Of a DNA stretch of 64,000 bases, positions 10,697 to 54,717 are shown piece by piece; the first letter of the stretch is position 1; every line of letters starts with the position of its first letter. The translations under genes and the position numbers were made by a program. The stretch is from Cenarchaeum sp. Its GTDB lineage: Archaea; Thermoproteota; Nitrososphaeria; Nitrososphaerales; Nitrosopumilaceae. The notes beneath the pieces are model-generated. The model was not told the origin of the DNA. It saw only the letters and a list, made by a program, of their open reading frames with translations, and searched no databases. The stretch lies in NCBI GenBank assembly GCA_965242695.1, contig CBDESU010000002.1:32001-96000 (forward strand), given 5' to 3'.

Positions 10697-10817
10697 GCCG
10701 GGGCGCCGATTCCCCCTTATTTGAACGGTGCGGCCGGGCGCCGCAGGGAGGCGGATACGCGGGGCGCGGCTCTTGCCCGAGCCGCGACGCAGGGCGCCGC
10801 CTGTCCCATTCCCGCGG

Positions 10818-15426: not shown

Positions 15427-15627
15427 CTAGTCCTTAAGCGCTACGGCCGCGGCGCGGCGCACTGAAGCGGGCAGTGCGGACTCACGGCGCCGGCCAGCGG
15501 CTATGCAGACCATCTTGGCAAGCGGGCTCGCAATCCCGGCGCCGCCCAGCGACGGCACTCTCACACTTGGGTACTCAAACCGTATCCACGACGGAGGGAA
15601 GTGCGGCCGGTAGTCACTTTGGTACAT
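15427..15627 (-). pseudogene. Truncated protease N-terminus (cassette F)
   Basis: MYQSDYRPHFPPSWIRFEYPSVRVP matches protease A N-terminus; no DTG motif. Confidence 0.6.
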
Positions 15628-15958
15628 AGAGCCAAGGCACCTCCTCGGGCTTCGCATAGATGTAGCGCATATGCAGGGCCCCCTTGCCGGCCTTGCGTCC
15701 CTCTTCGCAGACCTGCTCGGGATCCTCGCCGTGCGCTACGATTCCGCCGCCGGCCACGGCTATCCACTCTCCCATGTACTTTTCCGCCTCCTTTGACGTC
15801 ATTGCGTTGAGGAATTCTAGGCCCTTCTTGGCGTTCTCGTCGATCTGCGTGCACTGCGGGGGGTATCCGACGCGCATGTCCTCGGGCGCTATGATCACGT
15901 CTCCTTCAAACATAGGTGGTAGTCCCACGCCGGCGCGCCGGCCGTTCTCGTCCGCCAT
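15614..15958 (-). CDS. DUF5678-family protein (cassette F)
   Basis: KYMGEWIAVAGGGIVAHGED motif; TAAATAA box upstream. Confidence 0.8.
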   Translation of the reverse strand: MADENGRRAGVGLPPMFEGDVIIAPEDMRVGYPPQCTQIDENAKKGLEFLNAMTSKEAEKYMGEWIAVAGGGIVAHGEDPEQVCEEGRKAGKGALHMRYIYAKPEEVPWLYVPK

Positions 15959-16375: not shown

Positions 16376-16996
16376 TCGAGTCCGAACAGGCAGGCCCTCT
16401 GCGCCTCCGCGCCGACGCGCGGCGCGCCACCCGCTGCCGACACCGGCATAGTGGCAAGGGCTGGGGCGGCGGATCAGGCGGCGGCAGACGAGGTGCGAAC
16501 AGCAACAAGGGCATGCGGCGCGCCCATGCTCGCGGCGCAGTGAAAACCATCGATCCACTATTCATCCTCCCGTCCAAACATCGAAGCCCAAACCTGCGCC
16601 GCAGGCGGACGCGCAGGCGGGACATCAAGGTCAAAACTTGCAAGCCAGGCGGCCGGACATTGGCATTGGCGGCGGATACGCGGACAGGCGGCCGCTCATT
16701 GGACTGCAGCTGCGCACAAGCGGGCCGCGGATGCGCCAGTCGGTGGAGGCGGCATGGATCATGCGGCGCGTCCGGCCGACGGCGGGCGCGCAGCGCGCCG
16801 GCTGTGGCCTTGCCAATCCCTTCAATCCCCCACACGACTATCGCGCCCGTCATGCCGCCGGGTGGGCGCCGGATGCGGGGGTTGTGTTAATATGCGCGAG
16901 AGGCCGCGGCGGGCCGTGGGGGACAGGCTGCGCCAGGAGGTTGCGCACGACAGCTCTGCGGCTAGCGGGCGGCGCGGCTTGGATCGCGCAGGACGC

Positions 16997-17734
16997 ATGG
17001 CCTCAGACGCGCACCGCGGTTCCGACGCAGCGGCGGCCGCGCTTCCAAGGGAGGGCGAGAAGTTTACCGAGGGCCAGATGGTCGAGAGGTTTGGCACCTC
17101 GCCGCCTGGCGGCATACGATTAAGCAAGATATCGAGCGACATAATTCTTGTCCGCAGCGCAGACGTCCCAAATCACTGCGATGACGGCGATCCTGGAGAC
17201 TGCATCTACCATGGCGGCTACGCCGAGGAGCATGCCGACCGGATGATCGACTGGCGCAACAAGGCGCTGAGCGAATCGGGAAAAAACGGCAACCGTGTGC
17301 TGCTTTTTGCCAAAGACGGCGACAAGCTCGTGTTCCACGGCTGCGTCGAATGCGCGGGGTGGGAGCACGGGAACGTCCCGAACCGCGGCAAGGCAGTCAC
17401 CTTCAAAATGAGGCGGATCGGCAGTGCGGCGGCGCGTCCCGCGGGCCCTGCAAGGTACGCCACAGCCGTGAAGATTGCCAGGGACGAGGACGGCGGGTAC
17501 GTTGCTACCGCCCCCGCACTGCCGGCCTGCATATCCCAAGGCGAGACGAGGGCAGAGGCCCAAGAAAACTTGGCAGAGGCCATATCGCTGTATTTGGAGT
17601 ATCATTTGGAAGGCAAAGAGGACTTTTCGCCCGATCTTCCCGCCTCTCTTGACGTTGCCAGTATCCATGTGGACGGGGGCAGTGTCGACACAAGGATTGC
17701 CACTGTGCCGCATTCACGTCCTCGGGCGGTGTGA
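16997..17734 (+). CDS. SRA/YDG-like domain fused to HicB-like antitoxin domain
   Basis: N-term RFGTSPPGGIRLS..NKALSES..RVLLF..FKMRR (SRA-like); C-term RDEDGGYVATAPALPACISQGETRAEAQENLAEAISLYLE (HicB). Confidence 0.7.
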   Translation: MASDAHRGSDAAAAALPREGEKFTEGQMVERFGTSPPGGIRLSKISSDIILVRSADVPNHCDDGDPGDCIYHGGYAEEHADRMIDWRNKALSESGKNGNRVLLFAKDGDKLVFHGCVECAGWEHGNVPNRGKAVTFKMRRIGSAAARPAGPARYATAVKIARDEDGGYVATAPALPACISQGETRAEAQENLAEAISLYLEYHLEGKEDFSPDLPASLDVASIHVDGGSVDTRIATVPHSRPRAV

Positions 17735-21006: not shown

Positions 21007-22439
21007 TACGCGGCGCTGAGCGCCGAGAGGATCGGGGCTGCGTGCGAGGCGTCGGCCAGCGCCGCATCGCGCAGCTCGCGCAGCGCCTGCACCTGCGGCG
21101 CCAGCTCCGACCCGTACGCGGCCGTGGCCACAAGGCACCCGCCGCCCCCGCCAGGGGGATCGGAAGAGTCGGGCGGTAAGGGAGGGGGCGGCACTGGCCC
21201 TGCCTCCCCGCCCGCGGCATCGCCGCCGCCGGGGCCGGGCGGCGCGGCGGGCGACTGCCCCTCGCTTGCCGCCTCGCTTGCCGCGGCATCCTGCCGCTCC
21301 GGCGGCGCCCCGGGCGCCGCGCCCGGCTGCGCGGCCCCCGACGCAAGGTGCCTCTCTACGCAGCCCTCGTCGAGCCCGACGGCCGCGCAGATCGGCCCGT
21401 ACGCGGGGGCGTGGTTCTCGTCGTACCACTGCCGGTACGACTCGTCGGCCGCGTACCTGGCGATGTACGCAGAGGGGTCGAGCCCGCCGGCGAACGGGCC
21501 GGCGCCGCTCGGCGTCGCCGGCGATGCCTCCTGCGGGGCCGCATCGGGCGGCATCGGCGGCTGCGGCGGCGCGCCGCCGCCGGCGGCGGAGACGGCATCG
21601 CCGCCGTACGTCACGTACACGCGCTGCCCGGTGCACGAGTCGCCGACCCTGACGGTCTTCGAGTCGACCTGCAGCGAGCGGCCCTCCAGCGCGAATACGC
21701 GCAGCAGGAAAAAGTCCGGAATGTACGCGGCCTCGTATATGGCGCGTCCGGGCAGGTCCTGCACGGCCGCCGGCGCGGCGGCGACGCGGCCCTGGCCCGA
21801 GAACAGCTGCACGTCGTAGTCCCCGCCGATCGAGACGACCGCGCGCGTATAGTCCTCGCCGCAGTCCCAGGATACGGAGTATATGACGACGTCCTGCGAG
21901 CCCGACGGGGTCCCGGTGCGGCCGCCTCCTCCGCCCCCGCCTCCGCCTCCTCCGCCCCCTCCGCCTCCGACCACAAACGGCGGGGAAACCGCGGGAGGTG
22001 CGACGGGGACGGGAGGGGCGGGCGGGGGTTGAGGGGCGACGGGGGGCTCTGGAGGCGGGGGAGGAGGAGGCGGCGGCGGATCGGCATCGGGCGGCAGTAT
22101 GACGGCCGCGTTGGACTGCTCGCCGGTCGGCGAGGCGCCGCGCCCGTCCTGCGTCGCATTGCCGTCGCCTGGCGAGGGGGTTGCGCGCAGCCTGCCCTCC
22201 TCGGCCGCCGCCCCGGGCAGCGCAAACGGGCCGCGCGGCGCGGCGTCGCGCCCCTCTTCGGCCGGGCCGCCCGAGGGCGGCGCGGTGCCGGCGGCCAGGA
22301 AGAGCGCCAGCGCCAAGAGGGCCATGGCCGCAGCGGCCGCCATCGGGGCGCGGCGCAGGGGCGGCGGCAGCGGCCTGGAGGGTCGGGCAGTGCGCACGGC
22401 CGCCCGCGCTAGATGTGCCGCCCTAGTCATAGTTGCCAT
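20880..22439 (-). CDS. Exported Pro/Gly-rich protein with CFI-box-CTERM domain
   Basis: Hydrophobic N-terminal segment; C-term GGGCLVATAAYGSELAPQVQALRELRD..YYAASPAVADLER. Confidence 0.75.
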   Translation of the reverse strand: MATMTRAAHLARAAVRTARPSRPLPPPLRRAPMAAAAAMALLALALFLAAGTAPPSGGPAEEGRDAAPRGPFALPGAAAEEGRLRATPSPGDGNATQDGRGASPTGEQSNAAVILPPDADPPPPPPPPPPEPPVAPQPPPAPPVPVAPPAVSPPFVVGGGGGGGGGGGGGGGGRTGTPSGSQDVVIYSVSWDCGEDYTRAVVSIGGDYDVQLFSGQGRVAAAPAAVQDLPGRAIYEAAYIPDFFLLRVFALEGRSLQVDSKTVRVGDSCTGQRVYVTYGGDAVSAAGGGAPPQPPMPPDAAPQEASPATPSGAGPFAGGLDPSAYIARYAADESYRQWYDENHAPAYGPICAAVGLDEGCVERHLASGAAQPGAAPGAPPERQDAAASEAASEGQSPAAPPGPGGGDAAGGEAGPVPPPPLPPDSSDPPGGGGGCLVATAAYGSELAPQVQALRELRDAALADASHAAPILSALSAAYYAASPAVADLERAHPWLRDAVRAAIAPAVAALSSIVAAEST

Positions 22440-22790
22440 CCCCGCGCCGGAGCGCCCCCTGCCTGCAAGCGCAATTGGCCATCCCGTAGCCGGGGCGTAT
22501 ATCAAGAGTCCCCATGCGGCCGGGGACTGGGCGGCAGGCCTGCACGGATGTCCCCGCCGTCTGTCGGGCGCAGAGCGCTGCGGCCTAGCTTGGGGGCGTG
22601 GGGGACGGGCCGGCACGGATGTCCCCACCCCGATGCGCCAGGCAGGCCGGCCATGGGCGCAGGCAGTGTGCCAGCCCGGCAGCCACCGCCGTTGCGCGGG
22701 ATTGCCACTTGCTCAAGCACATGGGACGACCTGTGCTACGCGTCAAGGCAGAAAACGTGGCTATTTATAGCGGTGATTGTGAGCCGGTTT

Positions 22791-23393
22791 GTGGTAGCGC
22801 AGGAGGCAGTCAGAGAGTCGGCGGGGGCAGCAGTAGTTGCGCATACGACCATTGCGGAAGAGGTCGGCACGCCTGCGCAGCAACGGCAGGCCCGTACCGT
22901 TGCAGCCAACGCCTCGGTTGCATCTAGGAGCGGCACTGCGTCGCAGGGCGCCCCTGACCGCGGCACAGTCGAGATGGTCGAGCGCGCCATATTCCTGCAC
23001 CACCCGTACGATAACAGGGAGCGCCTGCGCAGCATCCTGCCCAGGAAGACTAGCGTTGAGGCCCTCGATCGCGTGCTGGACCACCTAGAGCGCTCCGGAA
23101 GGATCGCCATCGACGGGGAGGCCATACGCTGGGCAGCAGAGGCGGACGGCGAGGCGGACGGCGCCCTAAAGGCCGACGACAAGTCGATACTCGCGGGCAC
23201 GAACCTCGAGTGGCTCGAAGAGGGCAAGCTGCCGACCGAGACGATCGGCGAGTACATTGTGAGGGTGACCAACGCCCACGAGCCTGGGTCGTGCACGGCA
23301 GAGGATGCAAAGGAATACGACGAGGATATGCGCCAAGCGGCAAGGGGCGTGTCATATACGCACGAGCAGGTTTGGAAAGAGTTCGGGCCATGA
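22791..23393 (+). CDS. wHTH protein with antitoxin-like C-terminal tail
   Basis: TTTATA box 22764-22769; LDRVLDHLERSGRIAID (wHTH); tail YDEDMRQAARGVSYTHEQVWKEFG followed by ATGA into only a 31-codon stub. Confidence 0.6.
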   Translation: MVAQEAVRESAGAAVVAHTTIAEEVGTPAQQRQARTVAANASVASRSGTASQGAPDRGTVEMVERAIFLHHPYDNRERLRSILPRKTSVEALDRVLDHLERSGRIAIDGEAIRWAAEADGEADGALKADDKSILAGTNLEWLEEGKLPTETIGEYIVRVTNAHEPGSCTAEDAKEYDEDMRQAARGVSYTHEQVWKEFGP

Positions 23394-29362: not shown

Positions 29363-29710
29363 CTACGGCCGCCGCCCGCCCGGCGCGTCCAGCCCGTTGT
29401 GGAAGCACGTCCGCTCGCCCATGTGGCAGGCCGGCCCCGCCGGCTCTACCTGGTAGATGACGGCGTCCGAGTCGCAGTCGACCAGGATGCGCCTTACGGC
29501 CTGCGTGTTGCCCGACTCCTCGCCCTTCATCCACAGCCTGCCGCGCGAGCGGCTCCAGAACCAGGACGATCGCGTCGAGGCGGTGCGCTCCAGCGACTCG
29601 CGGTTGGCGTAGGCGAGTGTGAGCACCTCTTTTGTTTTTGCGTCCTGGACGATGACGGGGACGAGGCCGCCGCCCTTGCCAAAGTCGATCTCGTCCAGCC
29701 TCTTTTCCAC
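29363..29710 (-). CDS. hisI: Phosphoribosyl-AMP cyclohydrolase
   Basis: FWSRSRGRLWMKGEESGN, DCDSDA, ACHMGERTCF. Confidence 0.95.
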   Translation of the reverse strand: MEKRLDEIDFGKGGGLVPVIVQDAKTKEVLTLAYANRESLERTASTRSSWFWSRSRGRLWMKGEESGNTQAVRRILVDCDSDAVIYQVEPAGPACHMGERTCFHNGLDAPGGRRP

Positions 29711-30098
29711 GGGCGGGCCGGGCGGGCGGGCCGTAATATTTCATGGGGTACGGGGCGGCGATGCGGAGCCTGAGGGGCGCGTCCGCTCCCCGCGTCACCC
29801 GCGTCGGGCGGCATCCGCGGCGCGGGCGGCCGCACGTTTTGGCCCGGGCCGCGGCGCGCCAGCGGCGCCCCGCATCAAAGGGCAGGCGCATCTCGCCGGC
29901 AAGCCCCTCCGAACCGCTGTCGCATGCAGGTTCCGAGCGTCCCGTCCCGCGTCCGGCCCGCCTGCAGCACCGCCGATCGCCGGGCTGCGCATGCCTGGGG
30001 GTGGCGGCCCGCAGTCCAAGCCGCCCGTCCGCCGGAAAATCGGGCCGATGCGGCCACCCTACAGGCAATCTTTATCAACCCCCGATCGGCGGGCATGC

Positions 30099-30191
30099 CG
30101 GCGACGGCGGGAGTCGAACCCGCAAGGCACTTGGTTGTGCAAGTGCCGGCGTGGTATCAGCACGCTGGGCTACCGATTGCCCATCGTCGCC
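30099..30191 (-). tRNA. Non-canonical tRNA: anticodon GAU (Ile) with long class II variable arm and G73
   Basis: GGCGACG-AT-GGGC AATCGGTA GCCC-A-GCGTG CTGATAC CACGC-C-GGCACTTG CACAAC CAAGTGCC-TT-GCGGG TTCGACT CCCGC-CGTCGCC-G; all five stems perfectly Watson-Crick paired. Confidence 0.85.
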
Positions 30192-30212
30192 ATTTTTGCC
30201 AACAGCAGATGA

Positions 30213-30240
30213 TTGACATACCTTGCGGCAGGGTATAATA
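30213..30240. promoter_or_regulatory. Putative promoter/operator upstream of the tRNA-like gene
   Basis: Minus strand TATTATA (30240-30234); near-palindrome ATACCTTGC-G-GCAGGGTAT; plus strand reads TTGACA-N15-TATAAT. Confidence 0.4.
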
Positions 30241-30602
30241 CGGCATTTGGCGGGCCGGCGCCGCGCGGCGTGCGCAGCGGGGCGGGAAGGTTGGAGGAGG
30301 ATAATGCTGGCGGGCGGCGAATATCCTGCGCCCGTCGACGGGATGCGCCAGGCCCGCCCCATGCGGCGGCAAGGAGCGTGCCTGCCCAGGCATCCTGCGA
30401 GAGCCCGCCCCCCCCCATCCGCCCGCCCGCCGGCAGCTTGCCGCGGCACAGGGCCCCCGCAGGCGCGCAGGGGGATGCCCGGCGGTCGGCGCTCTGCACG
30501 TGCACGGGGCTGGGACGAGCCGAGCGCTGGCGCGCAGGCGGCACCCCCTTGCACGGCCGCACTGCATGATAGACATAATTGATCAGCGGGCCGCGGCCTG
30601 GC

Positions 30603-31451
30603 ATGGGCGGGCAGGGCGCGGTGGCCGTCGTCACCGGCGCCTCGTCGGGCATCGGCCTAGAGACGGCCCTGCTTCTGTCCGGCTCGGGCTATGCGGTGTA
30701 CGGCTGCTCGAGAAGCCCAGAAAGGATCAAGACGGCCGCGGCCGGCAGGGACGGCGGCGCCGGCATCAAGGCGGTCAAGATGGACGTAGACGACACGACG
30801 AGCGTCAACAGGGCCGTCGCCGGCGTGCTAGGCGAGGCCGACAGGATCGACGCGCTCGTCAACTGCGCAGGGTACGCCCAGATCGGGGCGATCGAGGACA
30901 TGACGATCGGCGAGATGAGGGGCAACATGGACACCAACTTTTTCGGGACCGTACGGGCTACAAAGGCCGTCGTCCCGGCCATGCGCAGGCAGGGGGGCGG
31001 CCGCATAGTCAACGTGAGCGCCGTGGCGGGGCGCACGGGGTTTGCGTTCGGGTCGGCGTACGTGGCCTCAAAGTTCGCCGTCGAGGGGCTGACCGAGTCG
31101 CTGCGGCACGAGCTGAGGCGGTTCGGCATACGGGTGTCGACCGTCGAGCCCGGGGTCGTCAGGACCGCGTTCCACGGCAGGATGGACACGAAGGCCCCAA
31201 AGGGCTCGCCGTACGCGGACATGGTGAAGAATCTGGTCAAGAGATCGGAGCGGCTGTACGCGAACGGGGCCGACCCCAAGGACGTGGCCCGGACCATACT
31301 CGAGGTGCTCGGCGAGGACGATCCGGCCCCGCGCTGCGCGGCAGGCAGGGACGCAAGGGAGCTCTTGGAGGAAAAGGCGAGGAGGACCGACGCGCAATTT
31401 GAAGAGTACGTGCAGGACATCTACGACGACGTCATGAAGCTTGGCGACTAG
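30603..31451 (+). CDS. Short-chain dehydrogenase/reductase (SDR)
   Basis: VTGASSGIG, LVNCAG, YVASK. Confidence 0.92.
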   Translation: MGGQGAVAVVTGASSGIGLETALLLSGSGYAVYGCSRSPERIKTAAAGRDGGAGIKAVKMDVDDTTSVNRAVAGVLGEADRIDALVNCAGYAQIGAIEDMTIGEMRGNMDTNFFGTVRATKAVVPAMRRQGGGRIVNVSAVAGRTGFAFGSAYVASKFAVEGLTESLRHELRRFGIRVSTVEPGVVRTAFHGRMDTKAPKGSPYADMVKNLVKRSERLYANGADPKDVARTILEVLGEDDPAPRCAAGRDARELLEEKARRTDAQFEEYVQDIYDDVMKLGD

Positions 31452-31485: not shown

Positions 31486-34400
31486 CTACGTCGGCGGCGG
31501 GACGCCGCCCGGATGCTGCTCGTCCTCGGCAGCGGCGCCGGCCGCGGATGTCACCCCTGCAGACTCGGCGAGGTCTGCATCCTTGAGGAACATCGCATGC
31601 GCCTCGGCCGCGTCCAGGCCCGGGTACAGCGAGCGGAGGCGGCCGCCCGACGACGGAACTCGCTCTGCCATCTGTCCGGCATCCGGCGCGGCCCCCAGGA
31701 TGCCGGAGAGCCGCCGGTAGTCCGATCCTAGCGCCTGGAGCGCCATGGTCCGGTCGTACTCTTCGGCGCTGGCAAACTCCGTCATTGTCCCGAACAGGCC
31801 CAGGTAGTACTCGATGCCGAGGCCCGACATGCTCCGCGCCTCGTCAAAGTGCGGCGCGCGGCCGAGCTCCCTCCTCATCCGCCGGTAGTCCCTGAACAGG
31901 GCCGCCTTGGTTACGGTCGTGTCTAGGCGGGACATGCGCCCGATGATCTCGTCGGCCGCCCCCTGGAATAGGCCGTAGCTCCCAAAGCACTCGGCATAGT
32001 CCTCTGAGGTATACACGCCGTCACTGTCGACGTCCGCACGCGACGGAGGCGCCCTCTTTTTCTGGTACAGCGCAAAGTAGGCCTCGTACAGCCTGTCCCC
32101 GAGGGCTGGATCGTCTCGGAGCGAAATGTCCCTCGACTCGAGGTAGGCGGCGTACCCGCCGTGCAGCCGCTCTGCCGCATCCACCGCGCCCTGCGGCGCC
32201 CTGGCCCGGAACTGGCGGGAGGTTGGCGTGTGCCCGTACTCCTTGTCGCGCAGGTAGGCAAACTCGTCGTCGAGTGCGGCCTGCGAGCGCGCCTCGGCGG
32301 CGGAGCGGCGGCCGGCTCCGGCCCTGCCCGCCCTGGCTGTTTCGGCCCTGCCCGCCTCTCCGGCCGCGCCGGCTTTGGCCGTCCCGGCGTCCGCCCCGGC
32401 GCCCCCGGGAGGCGCACCTGCCTCGGCCTCGGCCTGCGGGGCGGCCTCCCCGTCCCCGCCGCCGCCGCCGCCGCCATCCTCGTCCCACCGCTTCCAGTAC
32501 TGGCGGTATATCTTCCAGCCGACCTCCTCTATCGACTCGTCGTGGCCGTAGTCGAGCTGGAAGTTGTCGTCTATGTCGATGATCACGACGTCCCTCGTGC
32601 CGCCGCTCCGGGTTCCGCGCATGCCCCTGCCGATCATCTGCGTGTACAGCAGGGTGCTCCTCACCGGCCGCCCGACGAACACGCAGTCGATGTTGGGCGC
32701 GTCGAATCCCGCCGTCAGGACGCCGTAGTTGCACAGCACCTCTAGGTCGCCCGTGCGGAACCGCTCTATCGCGGCGGCCCGCGACTCGGCGTCCGTGCGA
32801 GAGTCGATGTAGGCGGCCTTGATGCCGTGCAGGGCCTTGAGCAGGACGGCGATAAGCCTAGAGTGCTCCACGCTGCACCCGAAGAAGAGTATCTTCTTGC
32901 GCCCGTATGTCCCGTTCATCTCGCTGATCTTGTCGAGTATGAGGCGGTTTCGGGCAGGCATGTTGCCGATCCCCTTGATCGTATCCAGGCCGAACTCGCC
33001 GAACTGCCTTACGTGGTCCATGTCCCGGGCCGTGAGGCGGATGCCGTCCGACGGGAGCACCCTGTGGTACACGTCGCACAGGATCTTCCTCTTGATCAGC
33101 CGGTGGTAGAGGCGCTTTTGCCTCTCCGGCGCGGCTGCCCCGTCCGCGTCTCCGCCGGCGTCGGCGGGCCTGTCCCTGATCCGCAGGTAGGCCGACGCGC
33201 TGCCCGTGTCCCCCTCGTTGTCCGTCACGGTCAGGGTTATCTTGTACTCGCCCGGGTTGTCGAGCTGCTCTACGATGTTTTTTTGGCCGCCGATGCGCCG
33301 CGCCGCGCGCCCGCCGCCGGCCTCGCCGGGGCCCCGGTACATGTCGATGAACGGCCTCGTCTTCTCTATCGTCCACAGGTACCCGTCGTCGCGTATGTAC
33401 CCGTCGCGGTCGTACGACCGCTCCCCGAGGATGCGGACGGGGTCGCCGGCGTACGCCGACGGCTGGCAGTCGATCAGCGCGTGCGGGCGCTCGTTTCCGC
33501 CCACGCCGCCGCTGCCGTCGTAGTACGGGATGTCGGGGTAGACGACATCGCCGTACCGCCTCTTGAGCTGCGCCTTTTCCTCGGCATCCCCGGTGCCGCG
33601 GAACGGCGTGGCCGTCAGTCCGATCAGCACTATGCCGAGCTCGGATATCTCCTTCTTGCGGTTGTCCCAGTTGAAGTGCATCTTGCGCAGCACGTCCGAG
33701 TAGGACCTCGCCGTCGAGTGGTGCGCCTCGTCGACGACGATGCACGACGTCAGCCCTGCGAGGCGGTCGAGCTGCCCGGGATCCCTCTTGAGGACCTTGT
33801 CGAGCGACTGCATCGTGGCCACGATGACGCCCCTCTCGTCGAGCAGGTCGCTCATTTCCATCGACGGCAGGACTCCGCCCTGCCCCCAGAACCGGTGCAG
33901 GCGCAGCGTCGTGCCCCTCTTGCCGAGCGCCTCGAAGACCTCCCGAAAGCTGCCCACCGCCTGCTCGCACAGCTCTTCGGTCTGCGCCACCCATACGATG
34001 AACTTCGAGTCGGACTGCTGCCTGTTCTCGGACCTCTTGCCGTCGTTGAGCCACTCGACGAGCGTCTCGACGACCATGCGCGTCTTGCCCGATCCCGTCG
34101 GCACCGCGATGAGGCGCCGCTTGATCGGGCGGCCGTCCGCGTCCTTCCGCGTCCCCTCCAGCATGCCCCGCACGAGCAGGCCCGCCGTGTACTGGTAGTC
34201 GTACAGGGGGTTGAGCTGCGAGTGCGGCTCGACGACCTCGGTGGCAGGCGGCCGCTGCACGCGCTCCTTCCTGGCAGTCGACGGCGGCAGGCCGAGCTTT
34301 TCGGCCAGCAGCATGCACCACCTGTCCGACAGGCGCGCCCGGGCCACCTCGCCGAGCGACCGGAACCGGCGGTAGTGCATCTTGTGGGCCGCATCGAACA

Positions 34401-34725
34401 TGCCGGCCTCTTCGATGTCGCCCCTTGCGGCGGCGGCGCGCAGCATGCGCTCGACAAACCTCTGGCGCTTTTCGGGATCGCCGTCTATGTTGCGCAGAAA
34501 GTGCGGCCCGACGCACGTGTAGAGTATCTCGGAGAGGCGCCCGGCATCGCCGATCTCTTCGTGCGCCCCGAGCATCTCGGCCACGGGCGCGCTGACCTCG
34601 CCTAGCACGTCTCGCAGCTCGTCCGGCCCCCACCACTCGGCGAACCTGCGCAGGCATGCCTCCCTCGAGCCCGTGGCGGATGCGCCGCCGGGCGCGGCGC
34701 GGGGGATCTCAACCAGCGCGACCAC
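31486..34725 (-). CDS. SF2 (ResIII/DEAH) helicase with inserted PKD domain and C-terminal helical repeats
   Basis: VPTGSGKT, VVDEAHH, GLTATPFR, GFDAPNID, TQMIGRGMRG; PKD-like SYDRDG..YLWT..PGEYKITLTVTDNEG; repeats like YRRMRRELGRAP..YYLGLFGT. Confidence 0.85.
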   Translation of the reverse strand: MVALVEIPRAAPGGASATGSREACLRRFAEWWGPDELRDVLGEVSAPVAEMLGAHEEIGDAGRLSEILYTCVGPHFLRNIDGDPEKRQRFVERMLRAAAARGDIEEAGMFDAAHKMHYRRFRSLGEVARARLSDRWCMLLAEKLGLPPSTARKERVQRPPATEVVEPHSQLNPLYDYQYTAGLLVRGMLEGTRKDADGRPIKRRLIAVPTGSGKTRMVVETLVEWLNDGKRSENRQQSDSKFIVWVAQTEELCEQAVGSFREVFEALGKRGTTLRLHRFWGQGGVLPSMEMSDLLDERGVIVATMQSLDKVLKRDPGQLDRLAGLTSCIVVDEAHHSTARSYSDVLRKMHFNWDNRKKEISELGIVLIGLTATPFRGTGDAEEKAQLKRRYGDVVYPDIPYYDGSGGVGGNERPHALIDCQPSAYAGDPVRILGERSYDRDGYIRDDGYLWTIEKTRPFIDMYRGPGEAGGGRAARRIGGQKNIVEQLDNPGEYKITLTVTDNEGDTGSASAYLRIRDRPADAGGDADGAAAPERQKRLYHRLIKRKILCDVYHRVLPSDGIRLTARDMDHVRQFGEFGLDTIKGIGNMPARNRLILDKISEMNGTYGRKKILFFGCSVEHSRLIAVLLKALHGIKAAYIDSRTDAESRAAAIERFRTGDLEVLCNYGVLTAGFDAPNIDCVFVGRPVRSTLLYTQMIGRGMRGTRSGGTRDVVIIDIDDNFQLDYGHDESIEEVGWKIYRQYWKRWDEDGGGGGGGDGEAAPQAEAEAGAPPGGAGADAGTAKAGAAGEAGRAETARAGRAGAGRRSAAEARSQAALDDEFAYLRDKEYGHTPTSRQFRARAPQGAVDAAERLHGGYAAYLESRDISLRDDPALGDRLYEAYFALYQKKRAPPSRADVDSDGVYTSEDYAECFGSYGLFQGAADEIIGRMSRLDTTVTKAALFRDYRRMRRELGRAPHFDEARSMSGLGIEYYLGLFGTMTEFASAEEYDRTMALQALGSDYRRLSGILGAAPDAGQMAERVPSSGGRLRSLYPGLDAAEAHAMFLKDADLAESAGVTSAAGAAAEDEQHPGGVPPPT

Positions 34726-34768: not shown

Positions 34769-36622
34769 TCATTCGAGGCCGCTAAAAAAGCCTAGCGAGT
34801 CGTCGGCGACGAGCGCGCGGTCGAGCAGCCAGTTGGCGTTCTCGCAGCTCGTCTCGGGCAGGAGCGCGCAGGCGTAGCACGCCGAGCCGTTGAGCCTCGC
34901 CACGGGCGGCATGCCGGCCTCCCGCTCCTTGAGGGCAGGGTCGTCGTCGGAGCAGAGCGGATCGCCCGAGCACCGCCTCGAGCGGCGCACCGCCGACCTC
35001 AGCGCGTCCCAGAACGCGCCGGGCTCGCCCTGCCTTGCAAGCCCCCCGAGGCTGCCGTCGGACGACGGGCTTGCCGTGTACAGCAGCATGCCGCTGTAGC
35101 CGTCCCCGCAGTAGAGCCGCTCGCGTATGGACGCCTCCGAGTAGCCGGACCCGAGGGCCAGTTCCCTGGCCAGCAGGTGCGATACGGTGTGGATCAGCAT
35201 GTACCTCGGGCTCGCCTCGCTCCGCCTCCACCCGCGCTCGGCCACCCACTGCCCGACCGCCCTGATCGTCGGCGCGCACCGCGCGGCGACGTCGGGCCTG
35301 CCCTCCCACCTGCGCAGCCTCTCCTCGCTCAGCGAGAACAGGATGCCCTCGCCGCGGTTTTCGACTGCGGGATACCACTTCATGTGGTCGCGGGATATAC
35401 GGCAGTAGTGCGTCTCGGCGGCCTCTTCGGTCGAGTACGGGTCGGGCGCGACGCCGCGCGTGAACGACCGGACGACCCTGATCTCGGTGAGGCGCCCGAC
35501 GACCCTGAGCGACGAGAGATACTCCGACGCCTCGGCGCCTAGCGGCGAGCTGGCGATCTCGAGATAGTCGCCCGCCCGGAACGCCTCGTGCGCCGTCAGG
35601 TCGTCGTACTCGATGCGGCGTATGTCCGCCTCGCTGAAGGCCTTTGTGATCCTTGTCCCGCCGGAGGTCGGGCGGTAGCACTCCCGGATGTGATCGGCGA
35701 TCTCGCCGGCGGCGTACCTTTCGCGCAGTCCGGCGAAGAGGGAGTGGCGCTCGGCGACGTCGTCGGCCGGGTTCATGTCCAGCGCGCTGTCGACCTCGGC
35801 CTTGTGCTCGGCGATGAACTGCCGTACCTCGTGGAGCATCCTTGGTATGTACAGCGCCGAGACGGTCGACGGGTAGTAGAGGCTCGTCGAGAGCGTCTGG
35901 ACGCCGCGAGGCCTGCCGGGGCCGTTGCCGCCGGCCGATCCGGCGCACTCGTCGGCCCGGCCGCCGAGCCACGGCGACAGGCCGCTGCAGCGGTCGACTA
36001 TGCCGTCAAGGCCGTCGCGCGAGACGGCCGAGCCGCACGAGCGCGATGCCCCACACGAGTCGCACCTTACGTAGTAGTCTGACAGCGCCGTGCTCCTGCC
36101 CCTGGCCCGCATGCGGAGGACGGGGTGCGGGTCGTCGCATTCCTTCTTCGACTCGCTGTGGGCCCACTCGCGCCACGGAAAGTCGTCGAGGTGGCCCCTC
36201 TCGCACATGACGATGAACCGGGCGGGGTACAGCGAGCTCTTGCACAGGTCGCACCTAAACTCGGCGCGGCCCCTCGGCGGCGCATCCCTGTGCGGCTGGA
36301 GGGCCTTGCACGCGGGGTTTGAGCATACGCCCCACATTGGAAACGACCTGCATGCGACGACCCTTTCCCTATCATCGGCGTACGGCATGCGAAAGTGCGT
36401 CTTGCCTAGCAGGGCCTCGAGGTACGCGTGGTGGATCACCTTGTAGTGCCCGCTGTGCTCGGCCCAGCTGTCGGGGCCCATTATGACGACCGAGTCGTTG
36501 CGCGTCTGCACGAGCGAGCCTGGGCCGAACGACGAGATCAGCTGGCTCGGGCGGATGGTGCCTGCCGGGCTCGCGTATGGATTCTGTGATGCGCCCTGTC
36601 CGCGGCTCGGCATGCCGGCCAT
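34769..36622 (-). CDS. drmB: DISARM DrmB-like DUF1998 protein (copy 2)
   Basis: RPSQLISSFGPGSL, RFIVMCERGHLDDFPW, HTVSHLL, SIRERLY, CSGDPLC..ACYACALLPETSCE; TGATG coupling to drmA. Confidence 0.9.
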   Translation of the reverse strand: MAGMPSRGQGASQNPYASPAGTIRPSQLISSFGPGSLVQTRNDSVVIMGPDSWAEHSGHYKVIHHAYLEALLGKTHFRMPYADDRERVVACRSFPMWGVCSNPACKALQPHRDAPPRGRAEFRCDLCKSSLYPARFIVMCERGHLDDFPWREWAHSESKKECDDPHPVLRMRARGRSTALSDYYVRCDSCGASRSCGSAVSRDGLDGIVDRCSGLSPWLGGRADECAGSAGGNGPGRPRGVQTLSTSLYYPSTVSALYIPRMLHEVRQFIAEHKAEVDSALDMNPADDVAERHSLFAGLRERYAAGEIADHIRECYRPTSGGTRITKAFSEADIRRIEYDDLTAHEAFRAGDYLEIASSPLGAEASEYLSSLRVVGRLTEIRVVRSFTRGVAPDPYSTEEAAETHYCRISRDHMKWYPAVENRGEGILFSLSEERLRRWEGRPDVAARCAPTIRAVGQWVAERGWRRSEASPRYMLIHTVSHLLARELALGSGYSEASIRERLYCGDGYSGMLLYTASPSSDGSLGGLARQGEPGAFWDALRSAVRRSRRCSGDPLCSDDDPALKEREAGMPPVARLNGSACYACALLPETSCENANWLLDRALVADDSLGFFSGLE

Positions 36623-39600
36623 CAGGCGCCGCCCCCTCCGCCGCCGCTGCCGCCGCGCACGTCGTCTAGGTACCACACCGGCACCGGCGGCTCGGCGTCC
36701 CTGAGCGAGTTGGGCACCTCTTCGAGCCCCCTCGATGCATCCTCGCCGGTCGGCCGCATCAGGTACTCTGCATTCTCGGGCTGCCGCGCCAGGCGGTGCC
36801 ACGGCCGGCTGTACCTGAGTGGAAGCCGCCCTGTCGCCGCCTCGTGCCAGACCCCCGCAAGCCGGTCAATGTCCTCCGACGTGCCCACTTCCTGGTCGGG
36901 GTCGACGCTCCTGGCCCTTTCCAGTATAGCGGCGCGGGCCCTCTCGAGCATGCCGGCGACATGCGACTCGGGAGGGGACGCGCGGAACTCGGCGGCTCCG
37001 GAGGCGCCGGCGAGCCTTGTGCCCTCGTGGCGCAGCATGGCCACGAGCACGGCTAGGAGCGCCCTGTCGCGCGAGCGCGACGAGAACGGCGTGACCGTGT
37101 TCGGCTCGACGTTCTTGTGCAGGGTGGAGTGGTAATGCACAAAGTTCTCGTAGTGCGACAGGTCGCGCGGCTTGAGGTAGTTTAGGTTGGCGATGACGAG
37201 GCCCGGCGATGCGCGCCCGATCCGCCCCGTCGCCTGTATGTACTCGGAGTGGTTCTTTGGCTGGCCGTTGACGATCATGACGCCGAGCCGCGGTATGTCG
37301 ACGCCGACGGAGAGCATGTTCGTGCAGAGCAGGACGTCGACGGGCGTCGGCGCGATGCCGGCGCTCCCAGGCTCCCGCGGCCGGCCGGCGCCCTCTACGG
37401 CCGCCTCCAGGCCGCGCAGTATGTCGGGTATGTCGCTCGAGTCGATGCGGCTCGTCAGCTCCTCCTTCATGAGCAGTGCGTCCTTGTACGCCCGCCCGCC
37501 GTCCTTTTTCCCGCCGCCTCCGCCGGCGGCGGCGGCGGCATCCTCCTCAAAGTTGGCGTATATCCTCTGGATGAGGCGCGGAACCGTGTCGTCGTACATC
37601 TTGTTGGCCCCGCCGAGGTCGCGCAGGGTGTTGAAGTAGGCCACGAGGGTGTGGTACGGGTCGAGGTCGCCCGGCGCTAGCTCGCCCCCCTCCTCGAGCG
37701 CGCGCACCTTGCGCAGGACGGCGGCAGACAGCCTGCCGAGCACCGTCGGGCCGCTTCGCGACGTGACGCACATTCCGACGTACGCCCTGCCTGGCTTGAT
37801 CGAGGGGTCGGCCCTTGTCGCAAAGAACGACTCGCCGTAGTCTAGGCCCTGCGGGGGAAACACCCTGCTGTCGCGGCGGTCAAAGACCGCGGCTATCTGC
37901 CCCGACGCCTTCTTGGCCGTGGCGGTCGAGGCTATGATCTTTGGGCGCCCGGCGCTGCCGCCGGAGCACAGCGCGTCCACGGCCGTCTCGTAGATTCCCG
38001 TCAGCGTGCCGAGCGGCCCCGATATCAGGTGCAGCTCGTCCTGTATGACGAGCTCGGGCGGGTCGAGTCGGGCCTGGCCGTGGTCGCCTAGCAGGAATGT
38101 CTCGGCGTTGCCGTGCGCGCCGCAGTCCTTGTCGAGCGCGTCGACAGTAAAGCCGTGCTTTTGGCAGTACTTGTCGACGCGGCCGAGGACGGCGCCGGCC
38201 TCCCACTTCCACGTGAGCTGCGCAAACTTGTCGACCGTCCCTATCACCAGGGACGGGCACCTGCTGTAGATGTCGTCGTCGACGACGAGGACGGGCAGGT
38301 TGGACTCGTAGCCGGCGCCCGGCTTGTCGGAGAATTCGCAGTACTTGTTCGGGCAGTACACGCGGCACTGCTCGGGCCTGCCCGACACGCGGTAGTCGCG
38401 TGCTGTAATCTCCTTGCCGCACCAGGGGCACTCGATGATCTGCACGGGGTTCTCGCCGCGCCTCGGCCGGCCGGCCCTCGCCTCCTCGATCGCCTCCCGG
38501 GCGCTCTGGAGGCGGTTGGGCGTCGCGCCAGACCCGACCCACAGCCCGACAAGGAACGGCTCGTCGCCCCACTTTGCCGGGGTGCGGCGCCGCACGGACT
38601 CGCATGCGCACATGAGGGCCGCGGCCCTGTGGAACTGTTGCAGCGTGAGCAGGCGGAGGGTGTACCGCATGACGACGGCCGTGCCGTAGCGGAGGTGGTT
38701 GGCATCGTGGGAGCGCAGGCGCCGGTGCGCCAGCGTAAAGGCGATCAGGCCGAGGTACGCCTCCGTCTTGCCCCCGCCGGTGGGAAACCACAGCAGGTCG
38801 GCGGTGCGGCGGCCCTCCGAGGACGGATCCGTGATCGACTCTATGTTGAGGAGGAAGAAGGCGAGCTGGAACATGTGCCACCTGCACTCGCAGGGGCCCG
38901 GCTCGTAGGCAGGCGCCTGGAGGCCGGCTCGCTTGTCTCGTATCCACCGGGCGTGCGACATCTGCAGGTACATGGCCCTGTTGGCGAACGAAAAGGCGTC
39001 GGCCGCCGCCTCATCGGTCGAGACGATCTCGATGCCGCGCCGGATGCGCCGCAGTGCGCGCCGGCACTCGGCTGCCTGTCGGTTGGCGGCCGCCCTGTGG
39101 CGGGCCGGCATCCGTGCCGCGCGCGGCTCCAGATCGCCGGCTATCCAGGCCTCGTACTCGTCGGCGAGCGGCGAGAGGAGGGCGGCATAGTCAGCCGCCT
39201 TTGCCTCGTACAGCGTCCTCATGTCCAGGTATGCGGCATCGGAGGGGCGGGGTCCGACGTGGGGCACGTCGTACCGCGGCACAAAGGTCGTCTCTAGGGA
39301 CGAGACGGCGCCGTGCTCGGCCGCCTCTTTTTCGTCCCACACTACGGCGCAGCAGTGGCCGGCCGCCACATGGACTTTGTCACGGAACATCATCTCAAAG
39401 AGGGCGTGGTCGGGGTCGACCTGGTCGCCGTCCGGCGGCGGCGCGGCGGCGGCGCCGACGAATATACGCGCATTCCCGCCTGCGGCGCCGTCCGGCGGCA
39501 GCAGCGTTATTCGCGGTTGGAAGGCGCACCGCGAGACGCCCGGCGGCGCAACCGCGAGGTGGATGTTCGTGTTTACCACGAACACGCGCAGGGCCGGGCC

Positions 39601-40230
39601 CCCGCCCGGGCCTCCGGCCTTGACAGAGTACCGAACCTCGAACTCTGGGTGGTCCTGCAGGGGCACGGATGCGGGGCCGGGCCGGCCCACGGGAATGTCG
39701 ATGGTCTCCGAGTGCGGGACGCGCCGGAACCGCCTGGCCTTCGAGTCCTCGGAGGGCTCTTCGACGTACGTACCGTACTCGATGCGCGCCCGCACGCGGC
39801 TTGTGCCCGGCGCGAGGGTGCAGCTAAGTCCGAACGACGACGGGTTGGCGCCCGTGGAGGGAACGCCCCCGGCGCCGGCGGCGGAGTGGCCTGCGCCCGC
39901 ATCGGCGTCTCCGCCGTCGGCGGCGGCGGCCCCGCCGCCTGCCTGCACGCCGGATCGCCCCTCGTTGTCCTCCTCGTCTGCCTGCATGTGGCGCGGGAAC
40001 AGTATGCCCGACATGTACCCGCGCAGGGGGCTCTCGCTCGACGGCAGCTTCTCTTCGGGGCCGCCCCGCGGCCCGACTATGTCGGCGCGCAGCTCGTCGA
40101 TGAGCATCTCGCGCACCTCGAGTGCTCCTTGCCTGCGGAGGCGGGGGGCAGGCTCGCCGTGGGCGGGGGGCAGACGGGACGAATCGCGGAGCTGATTGGC
40201 GCCGGGGGCGGCATCGCCGGCAGAGCTCAT
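36622..40230 (-). CDS. drmA: DISARM DrmA-like SF2 helicase (copy 2)
   Basis: LWFPTGGGKTEAY, MRYTLRLLTLQQF, GTVDKFA, IQDELHLISGPLGT, TNMLSVGVDIPRLG, YIQATGRIGR. Confidence 0.9.
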   Translation of the reverse strand: MSSAGDAAPGANQLRDSSRLPPAHGEPAPRLRRQGALEVREMLIDELRADIVGPRGGPEEKLPSSESPLRGYMSGILFPRHMQADEEDNEGRSGVQAGGGAAAADGGDADAGAGHSAAGAGGVPSTGANPSSFGLSCTLAPGTSRVRARIEYGTYVEEPSEDSKARRFRRVPHSETIDIPVGRPGPASVPLQDHPEFEVRYSVKAGGPGGGPALRVFVVNTNIHLAVAPPGVSRCAFQPRITLLPPDGAAGGNARIFVGAAAAPPPDGDQVDPDHALFEMMFRDKVHVAAGHCCAVVWDEKEAAEHGAVSSLETTFVPRYDVPHVGPRPSDAAYLDMRTLYEAKAADYAALLSPLADEYEAWIAGDLEPRAARMPARHRAAANRQAAECRRALRRIRRGIEIVSTDEAAADAFSFANRAMYLQMSHARWIRDKRAGLQAPAYEPGPCECRWHMFQLAFFLLNIESITDPSSEGRRTADLLWFPTGGGKTEAYLGLIAFTLAHRRLRSHDANHLRYGTAVVMRYTLRLLTLQQFHRAAALMCACESVRRRTPAKWGDEPFLVGLWVGSGATPNRLQSAREAIEEARAGRPRRGENPVQIIECPWCGKEITARDYRVSGRPEQCRVYCPNKYCEFSDKPGAGYESNLPVLVVDDDIYSRCPSLVIGTVDKFAQLTWKWEAGAVLGRVDKYCQKHGFTVDALDKDCGAHGNAETFLLGDHGQARLDPPELVIQDELHLISGPLGTLTGIYETAVDALCSGGSAGRPKIIASTATAKKASGQIAAVFDRRDSRVFPPQGLDYGESFFATRADPSIKPGRAYVGMCVTSRSGPTVLGRLSAAVLRKVRALEEGGELAPGDLDPYHTLVAYFNTLRDLGGANKMYDDTVPRLIQRIYANFEEDAAAAAGGGGGKKDGGRAYKDALLMKEELTSRIDSSDIPDILRGLEAAVEGAGRPREPGSAGIAPTPVDVLLCTNMLSVGVDIPRLGVMIVNGQPKNHSEYIQATGRIGRASPGLVIANLNYLKPRDLSHYENFVHYHSTLHKNVEPNTVTPFSSRSRDRALLAVLVAMLRHEGTRLAGASGAAEFRASPPESHVAGMLERARAAILERARSVDPDQEVGTSEDIDRLAGVWHEAATGRLPLRYSRPWHRLARQPENAEYLMRPTGEDASRGLEEVPNSLRDAEPPVPVWYLDDVRGGSGGGGGGA

Positions 40231-40539
40231 GCTCCTCCGCCCCCTCCTCCCGTGCAGGCCGACAACACGGCCGGCCGGATATTGCTCAATAAAAGCGTGC
40301 AGTGTGAGGGCCAGCGAGTGGCCATAGCCCTGCACGGGGCGTTTGGCCAATACTGAAGCAGCTGCGCCGTTCCATGCCTATTTCTGACTTGCCGCTGTAA
40401 AGACTTTGTAGACTACAACCGCATGCCGGAAGCTATGGCGCAGTGCGATGCCAGCCCCCGTGCGTCCCCCCCCCCCACAAGTAAACCCAAGTGATCATGA
40501 CACTCGGCAGCGCGAGATCCTGTGGGCAGGAGCAGGCCA

Positions 40540-45420: not shown

Positions 45421-46299
45421 TCACAGGCGCACCGGAACGCCCGCATCGAAGAGGAACCGCTTGACGGCGGCGATGCCGTACGAGCCGTAGTGGAATATCG
45501 ACGCGGCAAGGGCCGCATCGGCCGCGCCGTCCCTTCCCGCAAGCACCTCGGCCATGTGGGCGGGGGTGCCGCACCCGCCCGAGGCGACGACCGGTATCCC
45601 GACCGAGCCAGACACGGCCGACGTGAGCTCTAGGTCGTACCCGTCCTTTGTGCCGTCCCGGTCGATGCTCGTGAGGAGGACCTCGCCGGCGCCCATCTCC
45701 TGCGCGCACGCGGCCCATGCGACGGCGTCGATGCCGACAGGCCTCTTGCCGCCGTACACGTGCACCTCGAACCAGAAGGGGCGCCCGTCGGCATCGCGGC
45801 GCACGTGGACTGGCCCCGCGATGCCGGCGCCGTCCCCTCCTCCCCATCCCCTGGCCGCCCCGGCCGCCGCTTCCGCCCCGCCGCCCAGGCCGTAGTTGCG
45901 CTTTGCGTCGATGGCCACGACAACGCACTGCCTGCCGAACAGGTCCATGAGGCCGGTGAGGACGGACGGGTCGCGGACGGCGCCGGTGTTGATCGCGACC
46001 TTGTCGGCGCCGGAGAGCAGTATGTCGCGCGCGTGCCGCAGCTCGCTCACACCGCCGCCGACCGTAAACGGTATGTCCAGGACGCCGGCGACGTCCCTTA
46101 CGAGCGCAGTTATCGTCCTGCGCCGCTCCTCGGATGCCGTAATGTCCAGGAAGACGAGCTCGTCGGCGCCCTGCTCGCCGTACCTTGCGGCAAGCTCGAC
46201 GGGATCGCCGGCGTCGCGCGTCGAGACGAACCTCGTCCCCTTTACGACGCGGCCGCCGGACACGTCCAGGCACGGGACGATCCTCCTCGTCAGCGGCAT
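45421..46299 (-). CDS. hisF: Imidazole glycerol phosphate synthase cyclase subunit
   Basis: RIVPCLDV, GADELVFLDI, LLTSIDRDGTKDGYD, ALAASIFHYG. Confidence 0.95.
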   Translation of the reverse strand: MPLTRRIVPCLDVSGGRVVKGTRFVSTRDAGDPVELAARYGEQGADELVFLDITASEERRRTITALVRDVAGVLDIPFTVGGGVSELRHARDILLSGADKVAINTGAVRDPSVLTGLMDLFGRQCVVVAIDAKRNYGLGGGAEAAAGAARGWGGGDGAGIAGPVHVRRDADGRPFWFEVHVYGGKRPVGIDAVAWAACAQEMGAGEVLLTSIDRDGTKDGYDLELTSAVSGSVGIPVVASGGCGTPAHMAEVLAGRDGAADAALAASIFHYGSYGIAAVKRFLFDAGVPVRL

Positions 46300-47635: not shown

Positions 47636-47636
47636 G

Positions 47637-50852: not shown

Positions 50853-51063
50853 GACCGCCGGTGTATTTTTGTCTAATATATATATGAGGCGTACGGGACA
50901 GCAAGGCATCAATGCCTGTGGGCTGCCGGAGATGGCGCGCCAGAGCCCGCGCGCGGCGGCAGTCGAACCTGGAGGAAGATGTGGCGGGCGCAGCTGCCGA
51001 GAAGCGGCCGTTCCGGCGGCGATCGCGGGCGCGGACAGGCGCGGCAGCGGGCGCGCGCAGGCC

Positions 51064-54697: not shown

Positions 54698-54717
54698 CCG
54701 CGGCGGCGGCGGCGCGG

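Follow-up and report, generated by a model that had tools for sequence, protein, structure and literature searches.

A long-armed transfer RNA gene with an isoleucine anticodon and an apparently serine-type body, and its family, in an ammonia-oxidising archaeon

Which amino acid is carried by a transfer RNA (tRNA) whose anticodon names isoleucine, when its body seems to be built like that of a serine tRNA? The question is raised by a gene of 93 nucleotides (nt), here called copy A, on the minus strand of a 64,000-nt stretch of the genome of Cenarchaeum sp. (contig CBDESU010000002.1, positions 32,001 to 96,000; the window). The answer tentatively preferred here is that copy A may be a functional accessory tRNA, charged by seryl-tRNA synthetase (SerRS) and able to read AUC/AUU codons as serine. 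This reading is a possible one, and it has to be weighed against the behaviour of the other members of the family to which copy A belongs, the make-up of its gene unit and the sites in which the copies lie.

The gene and its family

Copy A is confirmed to be a genuine tRNA gene, which is intact and has a long arm and the anticodon of isoleucine. The anatomy that the initial annotation had described, with its stems and loops, A8/U9, G73 and long arm, is present in the sequence in every detail, on the minus strand:

30099..30191, minus strand: class II tRNA gene (copy A), 93 nt, anticodon GAU, G73 (ARAGORN, Rfam, fold, family model)
30156..30158, minus strand: anticodon GAU (tRNA positions 34-36) in the loop C32 U33 GAU A37 C38 (sequence)
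30126..30147, minus strand: variable arm with an 8-bp stem, GGCACUUG/CAAGUGCC, and a 6-nt loop, CACAAC (sequence, minimum free energy (MFE) fold, covariation)

The acceptor stem of 7 bp (GGCGACG/CGUCGCC) is followed by A8 and U9, and the D stem of 4 bp (GGGC/GCCC) encloses the loop AAUCGGUA and is followed by A26. The anticodon stem of 5 bp (GCGUG/CACGC) carries the loop CU-GAU-AC, C44 stands before the variable stem in a variable region of 25 nt, and UU precedes the T stem of 5 bp (GCGGG/CCCGC) with its loop UUCGACU; the discriminator is G73. Both the fold and the covariation analysis of the family give a 7/5 acceptor/T geometry. The assignment to a class II tRNA with an isoleucine anticodon is borne out by the sequence, by ARAGORN, which calls tRNA-Ile(gat), by the Rfam model RF00005 (47.8 bits against a cut-off of 29; E 4.4e-9) and by the full cloverleaf, which is the MFE fold (-50.3 kcal/mol, z -5.38) and is equalled by 0 of 200 shuffles. 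Moreover, the family covariance model R1 matches copy A at 115.9 bits. The default fast filters of Rfam lose the gene, with 0 matches in a whole-window scan. A selenocysteine tRNA was considered and rejected, as the geometry is 7/5 and the anticodon GAU, versus a 13-bp acceptor/T domain (9/4 in archaea) and UCA.

The host is an ammonia-oxidising archaeon, whose genome (G000; 2 contigs, 3.89 Mb, 67-68% G+C) encodes archaeal AmoA and contains intron-bearing tRNAs and no tmRNA; it probably lives in sponges, since the window region is present in sponge metagenome runs, the assemblies of which break at the family repeat. The separate canonical tRNA-Ile(GAU) that the initial annotation had thought worth looking for does exist in this genome (C1:253024-253113, class I, A73, 14-nt intron, 54.8 bits), and copy A is without its traits, having a 25-nt variable region and G73 versus a short loop and A73. 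The canonical tRNA-Leu genes (CAG, UAG, GAG, CAA) all have A73, with G37 in the readers of CUN codons (CAG, UAG, GAG), the tRNA-Ser genes have G73, and the overall tRNA set is normal. With introns allowed, ARAGORN reports 108 genes in G000, versus 43 Rfam matches, and C1 contains long ARAGORN 'tRNAs' without Rfam support (e.g., Asp, 99 nt; Thr, 93 nt; Pro, 100 nt).

Copy A is not the lone oddity that it had first seemed to be, since it is one of 18 copies whose other anticodons are those of leucine (NAG) and phenylalanine (GAA). The census was made by a covariance-model search of 151 genomes of the taxonomic family, with wider samples of 151 genomes each from the order and the phylum; G004 and G001-G003 are of the same genus as G000, and G104 and G120 of a second genus. 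The 18 copies were found in 4 of the 151 genomes, four of them in G000, seven in its congener G004, six in G104 and one in G120. Besides copy A, those of G000 are:

C1:407285-407377: family copy, anticodon CAG
C1:407462-407554: family copy, anticodon UAG, in tandem with the CAG copy at C1:407285-407377
C2:1303050-1303142: family copy D, anticodon CAG

The copies of G004 (3.7 Mb) have the anticodons AAG, UAG, UAG, AAG, GAG, GAU and GAG, the last three being damaged. G104 has intact GAU, CAG and GAA copies, a CAG copy that is divergent and two GAU copies in which the D arm carries deletions, and the copy of G120 is GAU. Altogether, GAU occurs six times, CAG four, UAG three, AAG and GAG twice each and GAA once, so that 11 of the 18 anticodons are those of leucine and none is that of serine. 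GAU is the commonest and recurs in all four carrier genomes and, therefore, the isoleucine anticodon is no accident of a single gene. All 18 copies share A35, and 17 have G73, the exception being a copy in which the 3' acceptor strand is damaged. G37, which normal tRNA-Leu(NAG) genes also have, occurs in two copies of G004.

In the order sample, family-model matches occurred solely in G000, leaving aside one 52-bit match in an unpublished genome, and in the phylum sample all non-family matches lay at or below 55.2 bits, intact family members scoring at least 89 bits. The exact 5'-half pattern of the family had 0 matches in genome contigs and metagenome contigs, blastn against phage and plasmid collections gave no match, and no pattern match was found in viral contigs. 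The 3' pattern was discarded as a search probe, since it is too generic and retrieved mostly bacterial tRNA-Cys. The family is, in sum, lineage-restricted and multi-copy, and is found in few large-genome ammonia-oxidising archaea.

The relatives do provide the covarying homologues for which a search had been suggested. Across 15 aligned copies, 98.8% of the cells are paired and 11 pairs have changed on both sides, in an alignment that was fitted to the model and favours pairing; on the identical alignment, partners slid by 1-3 columns leave 0-1 two-sided pairs, and 2 of 500 shuffles reach 11. In the variable stem, six of the eight pairs have changed on both sides. Two subfamilies differ, with compensatory changes, in three of the seven acceptor pairs, two of the five anticodon-stem pairs and most of the variable stem, and both keep C32, U33, a purine at position 37 (A37 or G37), the T loop and G73 despite their diverged stems. 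The family cloverleaf, including the long arm, is thus clearly under purifying selection on structure, and such conservation argues for an RNA that would still meet the tRNA machinery.

Covariation also bears on whether the arm of copy A could be a non-canonically placed intron in what would otherwise be an ordinary tRNA-Ile(GAU) of class I. Intron-bearing tRNAs exist in this genome, including the canonical tRNA-Ile and tRNA-Trp, but the arm is a perfect hairpin without a bulge-helix-bulge in the MFE fold, its excision would leave 3 nt (C + UU), too few for the variable loop of a class I tRNA, and its two strands covary as those of a helix across the 15 copies; therefore, an intron, against which the initial annotation had also argued, is practically excluded. 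In addition, most paralogues have leucine anticodons, where a long arm is native, and a canonical tRNA-Ile(GAU) is already present in the genome.

The type of body and the charging enzyme

The body was typed by means of a covariance model, R2, built from the family itself, with its Leu, Ile and Phe anticodons, and matched to outside tRNAs. The best outside matches were bacterial tRNA-Ser(GCU) genes of acidobacterial tRNA arrays (62.5-68.5 bits), in loci that had been retrieved for another tRNA in them, so that the tRNA-Ser(GCU) match does not arise by construction. The phylum sample gave 41 non-family matches to R2, and the 14 that were typed, from the upper part of the list, comprised 13 tRNA-Ser (9 GCU, 2 GGA and 2 UGA), one intron-length tRNA-Lys call and no tRNA-Leu. 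Three tRNA-Ser(GCU) genes from soil metagenomes are identical to the family at positions 8-26 and have G73 and the anticodon loop CUGCUAA; their identity in the D and T arms was imposed by the search pattern, whereas isotype, G73 and A8-U9 were not. Crude pairwise tRNA scoring was set aside as biased, since the compared loci had been chosen by family-derived patterns. On four acidobacterial contigs (L048, L066, L101 and L115), tRNA genes form dense arrays, dozens of them within 8 kb, including the tRNA-Ser(GCU) genes that are most like the family.

Thus, the family has the long arm and G73 of serine-type class II tRNAs, and tRNA-Ser as its nearest relatives, and is without a serine anticodon; on sequence similarity, its body is of serine type and resembles the GCU isoacceptor. 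It would be foreign to the tRNA-Ser of its own lineage, because the class II tRNAs of the host score just 21.3-37.6 bits against R2 (22.7-34.1 bits for tRNA-Leu and 21.3-37.6 bits for tRNA-Ser). From the proposal of a serine or leucine body, the serine half is retained on the strength of the long arm, G73 and the nearest R2 relatives, and the leucine half is dropped, given the lack of A73 and the 0 of 14 typed neighbours that are tRNA-Leu. Membership of the archaeal tRNA-Leu was likewise rejected, as the family has G73 instead of A73 and a variable-arm loop that is free to vary among copies. One base change (C35A) leads from GCU to GAU, one more from GAU to either GAG or GAA, and a further one from GAG to each of the other NAG triplets; all the anticodons could, therefore, represent a short walk from a serine ancestor via GAU.

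In the parts of the literature on tRNA identity drawn on here, serine identity resides in the variable arm and G73, the anticodon being ignored, and a change of A73 to G73 switches leucine identity to serine (PMC9976931). The same source describes Ile, Phe and Leu identities as using A73, with the anticodon as a determinant for IleRS and PheRS, archaeal tRNA-Leu as having A73 and a variable-arm loop that is read by LeuRS, and G73 as an antideterminant for the LeuRS of Haloferax (PMC9976931). Long-armed tRNAs with G73 or U73 were inferred to be of serine type in the report on bacterial allo-tRNAs, in which serine insertion was shown in E. coli (PMC5389517). SerRS is most likely the charging enzyme of copy A, because it recognises the long arm together with G73 irrespective of the anticodon, and the genome has one SerRS; in the carriers this enzyme has an N-terminal arm domain.

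We infer transcription, serylation and ribosomal use of the family tRNAs, and the preferred reading can be stated as a series of steps. A tRNA-Ser of the GCU-isoacceptor type, with a long variable arm of 8-9 bp, G73 and 7/5 geometry, would have given rise to the family body when the middle base of its anticodon became A35. The single SerRS would charge copy A, which would deliver serine to AUC/AUU codons, while its paralogues would deliver it to CUN and UUY codons, all of them competing with the canonical tRNA-Ile, tRNA-Leu and tRNA-Phe. Such decoding would have to be weak, low-level or conditional, because AUC and CUG are very common codons (25.6 and 36.0 per 1000, respectively; CUC 29.2, UUC 19.1, CUU 7.3 and CUA 4.6).

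Mistranslating tRNA-Pro variants of Streptomyces are reportedly partnered with a dedicated ProRS paralogue. No extra synthetase was found for the archaeal family, as G000, G004 and G001-G003 have an identical class Ia set and one SerRS, and no extra elongation factor was found in the carriers, with four to five translational GTPases each in G000, G004, G104, G001 and G003. Thus, no dedicated partner enzyme was found, and carriers and non-carriers share the class Ia synthetases, the one SerRS and the translational GTPases.

The codon frequencies lend themselves to another reading, in which each copy would be charged according to its anticodon, this one by IleRS, the GAA copy by PheRS and the NAG copies by LeuRS, and would simply add to the capacity for reading AUC, CUG, CUC and UUC, codons that abound in the enlarged, G+C-rich genomes. 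Several anticodons fit these commonest codons, the anticodon is a determinant for IleRS and PheRS (PMC9976931), and the G37 of two G004 copies is that of normal tRNA-Leu(NAG). However, the UAG and AAG copies serve the rare codons CUA and CUU, Ile, Phe and Leu identities normally go with A73 whereas the family keeps G73, and the body is serine-like rather than Ile-, Phe- or Leu-like, all of which makes charging by matched synthetases distinctly unlikely.

Leucine could also be attached whatever the anticodon, so that the GAU copy would put leucine at isoleucine codons, in the manner of the class II nev-tRNA-Ile and nev-tRNA-Gly of nematodes, which are charged solely with leucine (PMC3333845). 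NAG anticodons in 11 of the 18 copies and A15-U48, a leucine element in E. coli (PMC9976931), are consistent with this. Nevertheless, a leucine identity of the family is unlikely, because the family is without A73 and G73 is a reported antideterminant for archaeal LeuRS: 17 of the 18 copies have G73, which blocks the Haloferax enzyme, the variable loop is unconstrained in sequence and mostly without the AG of host tRNA-Leu loops, and none of the 14 typed nearest archaeal neighbours is a tRNA-Leu. We regard leucine charging as improbable.

The gene unit and its genomic setting

Every copy lies within a conserved, self-contained unit of ~180-270 bp. Around copy A, which belongs to subfamily 1, this unit contains:

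30232..30243, minus strand: upstream conserved motif CCGTATTATACC (flank alignment)
30212..30224, minus strand: putative TATA-like promoter element AAGGTATGTCAAT at -33 to -21 (aligned with the other subfamily-1 copies)
30192..30200, minus strand: A-rich stretch GGCAAAAAT directly before +1 (flank alignment)
30079..30093, minus strand: 3' trailer hairpin CCCGCCGATCGGGGG (hairpin of differing sequence at the equal place in copies B, C and D)
30070..30078, minus strand: conserved 3' TATA-like motif TTGATAAAG (flank alignment)

In the other subfamily-1 copies, a TATA-like element of the AAGGTATAAA type stands at equal distance, from -33 to -24, and the upstream motif is palindromic, of the TATACCGTATA type, near -55; it might be a regulator-binding site. 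Directly before +1, 10 of 11 subfamily-1 copies have (A/G)AAAAT or GAAAT, the eleventh has GGAAT, and subfamily 2 has AATGAC. Position -1 is U in subfamily 1 and C in subfamily 2, and could pair with G73 to give an 8-bp acceptor stem in the precursor. The 3' motif takes the form TTATAAAACCTGCGG in most copies (at ~+20 to +35 in subfamily 1), and TTATAAAACCTG occurs once in the whole G000 genome; an outward or antisense promoter and an insulator are candidate functions. Subfamily 2 has the same layout with other sequences, TAATCTAATATAC upstream and TCTATAAAAAAGTAGGG downstream, plus AATGCCGT as its upstream motif. The canonical tRNA genes of G000 have a TATA-like box near -30, followed by G+C-rich spacers, and none of the other motifs of the family. 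Each copy would thus seem to have its own archaeal TATA-type promoter.

The histidine operon is broken up here by a block containing a restriction-like helicase and a DrmA/DrmB pair, and copy A is located at the edge of that block, between hisI (29363-29710) and a gene for a short-chain dehydrogenase (30579-31451). The copies of G000 and G004 are non-syntenic, and no neighbour gene is common to the family loci of the two genomes. The spacer between hisI and the dehydrogenase gene in G004 does not align with that of G000, and the insert of ~1.15 kb beside the ThrRS gene of G000 shows no obvious duplication. Three G104 loci (L170, L171 and L174) lie in repeat- and insertion sequence (IS)-rich DNA. 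Two copies there have the end of an IS66-family transposase gene 27-64 nt away, and the IS has inserted 8 nt beyond the G73 of one copy. Carriage of the tRNA by the IS was rejected, since the IS66 ends lie at differing distances from the copies.

The tandem pair of G000 (C1:407285-407554, L168) is situated 237 nt from a ThrRS gene with an archaeal editing domain, in divergent orientation, and copy D (L169) lies 757 nt upstream of an AlaRS-LeuRS gene pair. ThrRS and AlaRS hydrolyse mischarged serine. The adjacency of two of the three family loci of G000, those outside the window, to genes for serine-editing synthetases may be due to chance. In G004 none of the seven copies adjoins a synthetase gene, the MetRS gene lying ~3.8 kb from one of them.

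Several of these observations, together with some from the census, weigh against a serine-inserting accessory tRNA. The insert is absent from G004 both between hisI and the short-chain dehydrogenase gene and upstream of ThrRS, where G000 has the ~1.15 kb extra, and from G002 beside AlaRS; the family-model search found no copy in three other genomes of the genus (1.8-3.2 Mb), and 5 of the 18 copies are decayed, including three of the six GAU copies, which fits weak or negative selection on some copies at least. The family tRNA genes are thus dispensable, given the decayed copies and their absence from close relatives and orthologous sites. Moreover, efficient serine insertion at the common AUC, CUG and CUC codons should be harmful. 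The invariance of A35 is not explained by anticodon-blind serylation alone, and the GAU and GAA copies might be substrates of IleRS and PheRS, which read the anticodon. The assignment to the serine type, in turn, draws on covariance-model similarity, with 14 of the 41 archaeal matches typed.

The same pattern of presence and absence would suit a tRNA-shaped RNA without a decoding role, carried by a small, self-contained unit, a selfish or regulatory module that either spreads or is tolerated; it might act, for example, as a processing signal, as a carrier of an outward or antisense promoter, or as a decoy for a regulator or toxin. The conserved unit of just ~180-270 bp, the non-syntenic sites without common neighbour genes, the empty orthologous sites, the five decayed copies and the IS-rich surroundings in G104, with IS66-family transposase genes 27-64 nt away, are all consistent with such a module, and the 3' motif is kept more strongly than a plain trailer needs. 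In addition, the allo-tRNA(UAU) genes of bacteria have been proposed to act outside translation and to be associated with transposons or toxin-antitoxin systems (PMC5389517). However, the two subfamilies, with their diverged stems, both keep G73, the T loop and an anticodon loop of 7 nt that has U33 and a purine at 37, and the anticodons vary solely among sense triplets separated by single steps, a pattern that resembles selection on decoding; furthermore, no target-site duplications or terminal repeats were found, and the IS66 ends stand at differing distances from the copies. A non-decoding module is therefore considered unlikely, and a serine-accepting accessory tRNA of low or conditional use is retained as the tentative reading.

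The surroundings of copy A had been described as rich in PIN and RelE genes, a description that is not borne out, since 0 of the 39 Pfam-scanned open reading frames (ORFs) of the window match either. The window is nonetheless defence-rich, with an AAA_15/AAA_21 ATPase in addition to the following:

1745-7692, plus strand: DrmA/DrmB (DISARM-type) pair
8515-8913, 10349-11362, 11316-11669 and 15614-15958, all on the minus strand: four DUF5678 proteins (Pfam)
16754-17734: ORF with a HicB-like antitoxin domain (Pfam)
31486-34725: restriction-like helicase with HNH repeats
34769-40350, minus strand: DrmA/DrmB (DISARM-type) pair

The histidine genes are split, hisI lying ~16 kb from hisA/F, hisH, hisB, hisC, hisD and hisG (46290-55722), and the block in between holds genes for the dehydrogenase, for defence, for a methyltransferase and for a metalloprotease/cupredoxin protein of 913 amino acids. 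An ORF at 22413-23393 on the plus strand gives a weak match to a SelB winged helix (E 2.8e-5) and probably encodes a plain winged-helix protein.

Significance and comparison with known systems

Rather unlikely, though of wide consequence, is the idea that these self-contained, spreading genes for serine-accepting tRNAs form a natural and possibly regulated archaeal 'mistranslator' that reads the commonest hydrophobic codons (Ile AUC, Leu CUN and Phe UUC). If so, serine would conditionally replace hydrophobic residues throughout the proteome, which might serve, for example, in the response to stress, in symbiosis or in abortive infection, and the archaeal domain would have its first example of such a system. 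Class II tRNAs that contradict their anticodons are known so far from nematodes (nev-tRNAs), bacteria (allo-tRNAs) and CUG-clade yeasts, and long-armed tRNAs with isoleucine anticodons would have appeared independently for a third time, after nematodes and bacteria. The family is useful in this regard for its ordinary 7/5 cloverleaf, the evident purifying selection on its structure, its narrow anticodon series (GCU to GAU to GAG/NAG and GAA) and the very common codons concerned. Charged with serine, it would offer a natural experiment in tolerable sense-codon ambiguity and in the onset of anticodon shifts; acting outside translation, it would represent a small genomic unit, shaped like a tRNA, of a novel kind in archaea. 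No class II tRNA with such a conflict between anticodon and identity has been described for Archaea in the literature searched, supplements aside, of which that of PMC5389517 lists many irregular tRNAs that may include relatives.

The allo-tRNAs, as described in the main text of PMC5389517, resemble the family in combining a long arm and the serine-type identity of G73 or U73 with non-serine anticodons, including those of Ile, Leu and Phe, in the decay of some copies and in their proximity to transposons and toxin-antitoxin genes; moreover, the closest bacterial tRNAs of the family also come from acidobacterial tRNA arrays. They differ in their defining 8/4 or 9/3 acceptor/T geometry (PMC5389517), versus 7/5 in the family, and the archaeal host, the inferred archaeal TATA-type promoters and the narrow anticodon set, all with A35, set the family further apart. 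Membership of the allo-tRNAs was thus rejected on geometry, although the long arm, G73 and non-serine anticodon are shared.

The nev-tRNAs are likewise class II molecules with a normal cloverleaf and Ile or Gly anticodons, forming a lineage-restricted multi-gene family, but they are derived from tRNA-Leu and charged with leucine in the account given in PMC3333845, whereas the archaeal family is serine-like, with G73 and with GAU instead of UAU. A place among them was rejected, since the body is serine-like and 0 of the 14 typed nearest neighbours are tRNA-Leu. The mistranslating tRNA-Pro variants of Streptomyces and relatives (PMC10404621) are also natural extra tRNAs in which anticodon and acceptor identity are mismatched; however, they are class I tRNAs, whereas the archaeal family is class II and was found without an extra synthetase or elongation factor. 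Finally, the tRNA-Ser(CAG) of CUG-clade yeasts, including Ascoidea with its stochastic Ser/Leu decoding, is a serine-type tRNA with a leucine anticodon, CAG, that rivals tRNA-Leu (PMC6041473), and four family copies have this same anticodon. The yeast change is a fixed or stochastic, genome-wide one of a single codon (PMC6041473), whereas the archaeal family has several anticodons and is dispensable, and canonical tRNAs are kept beside it.

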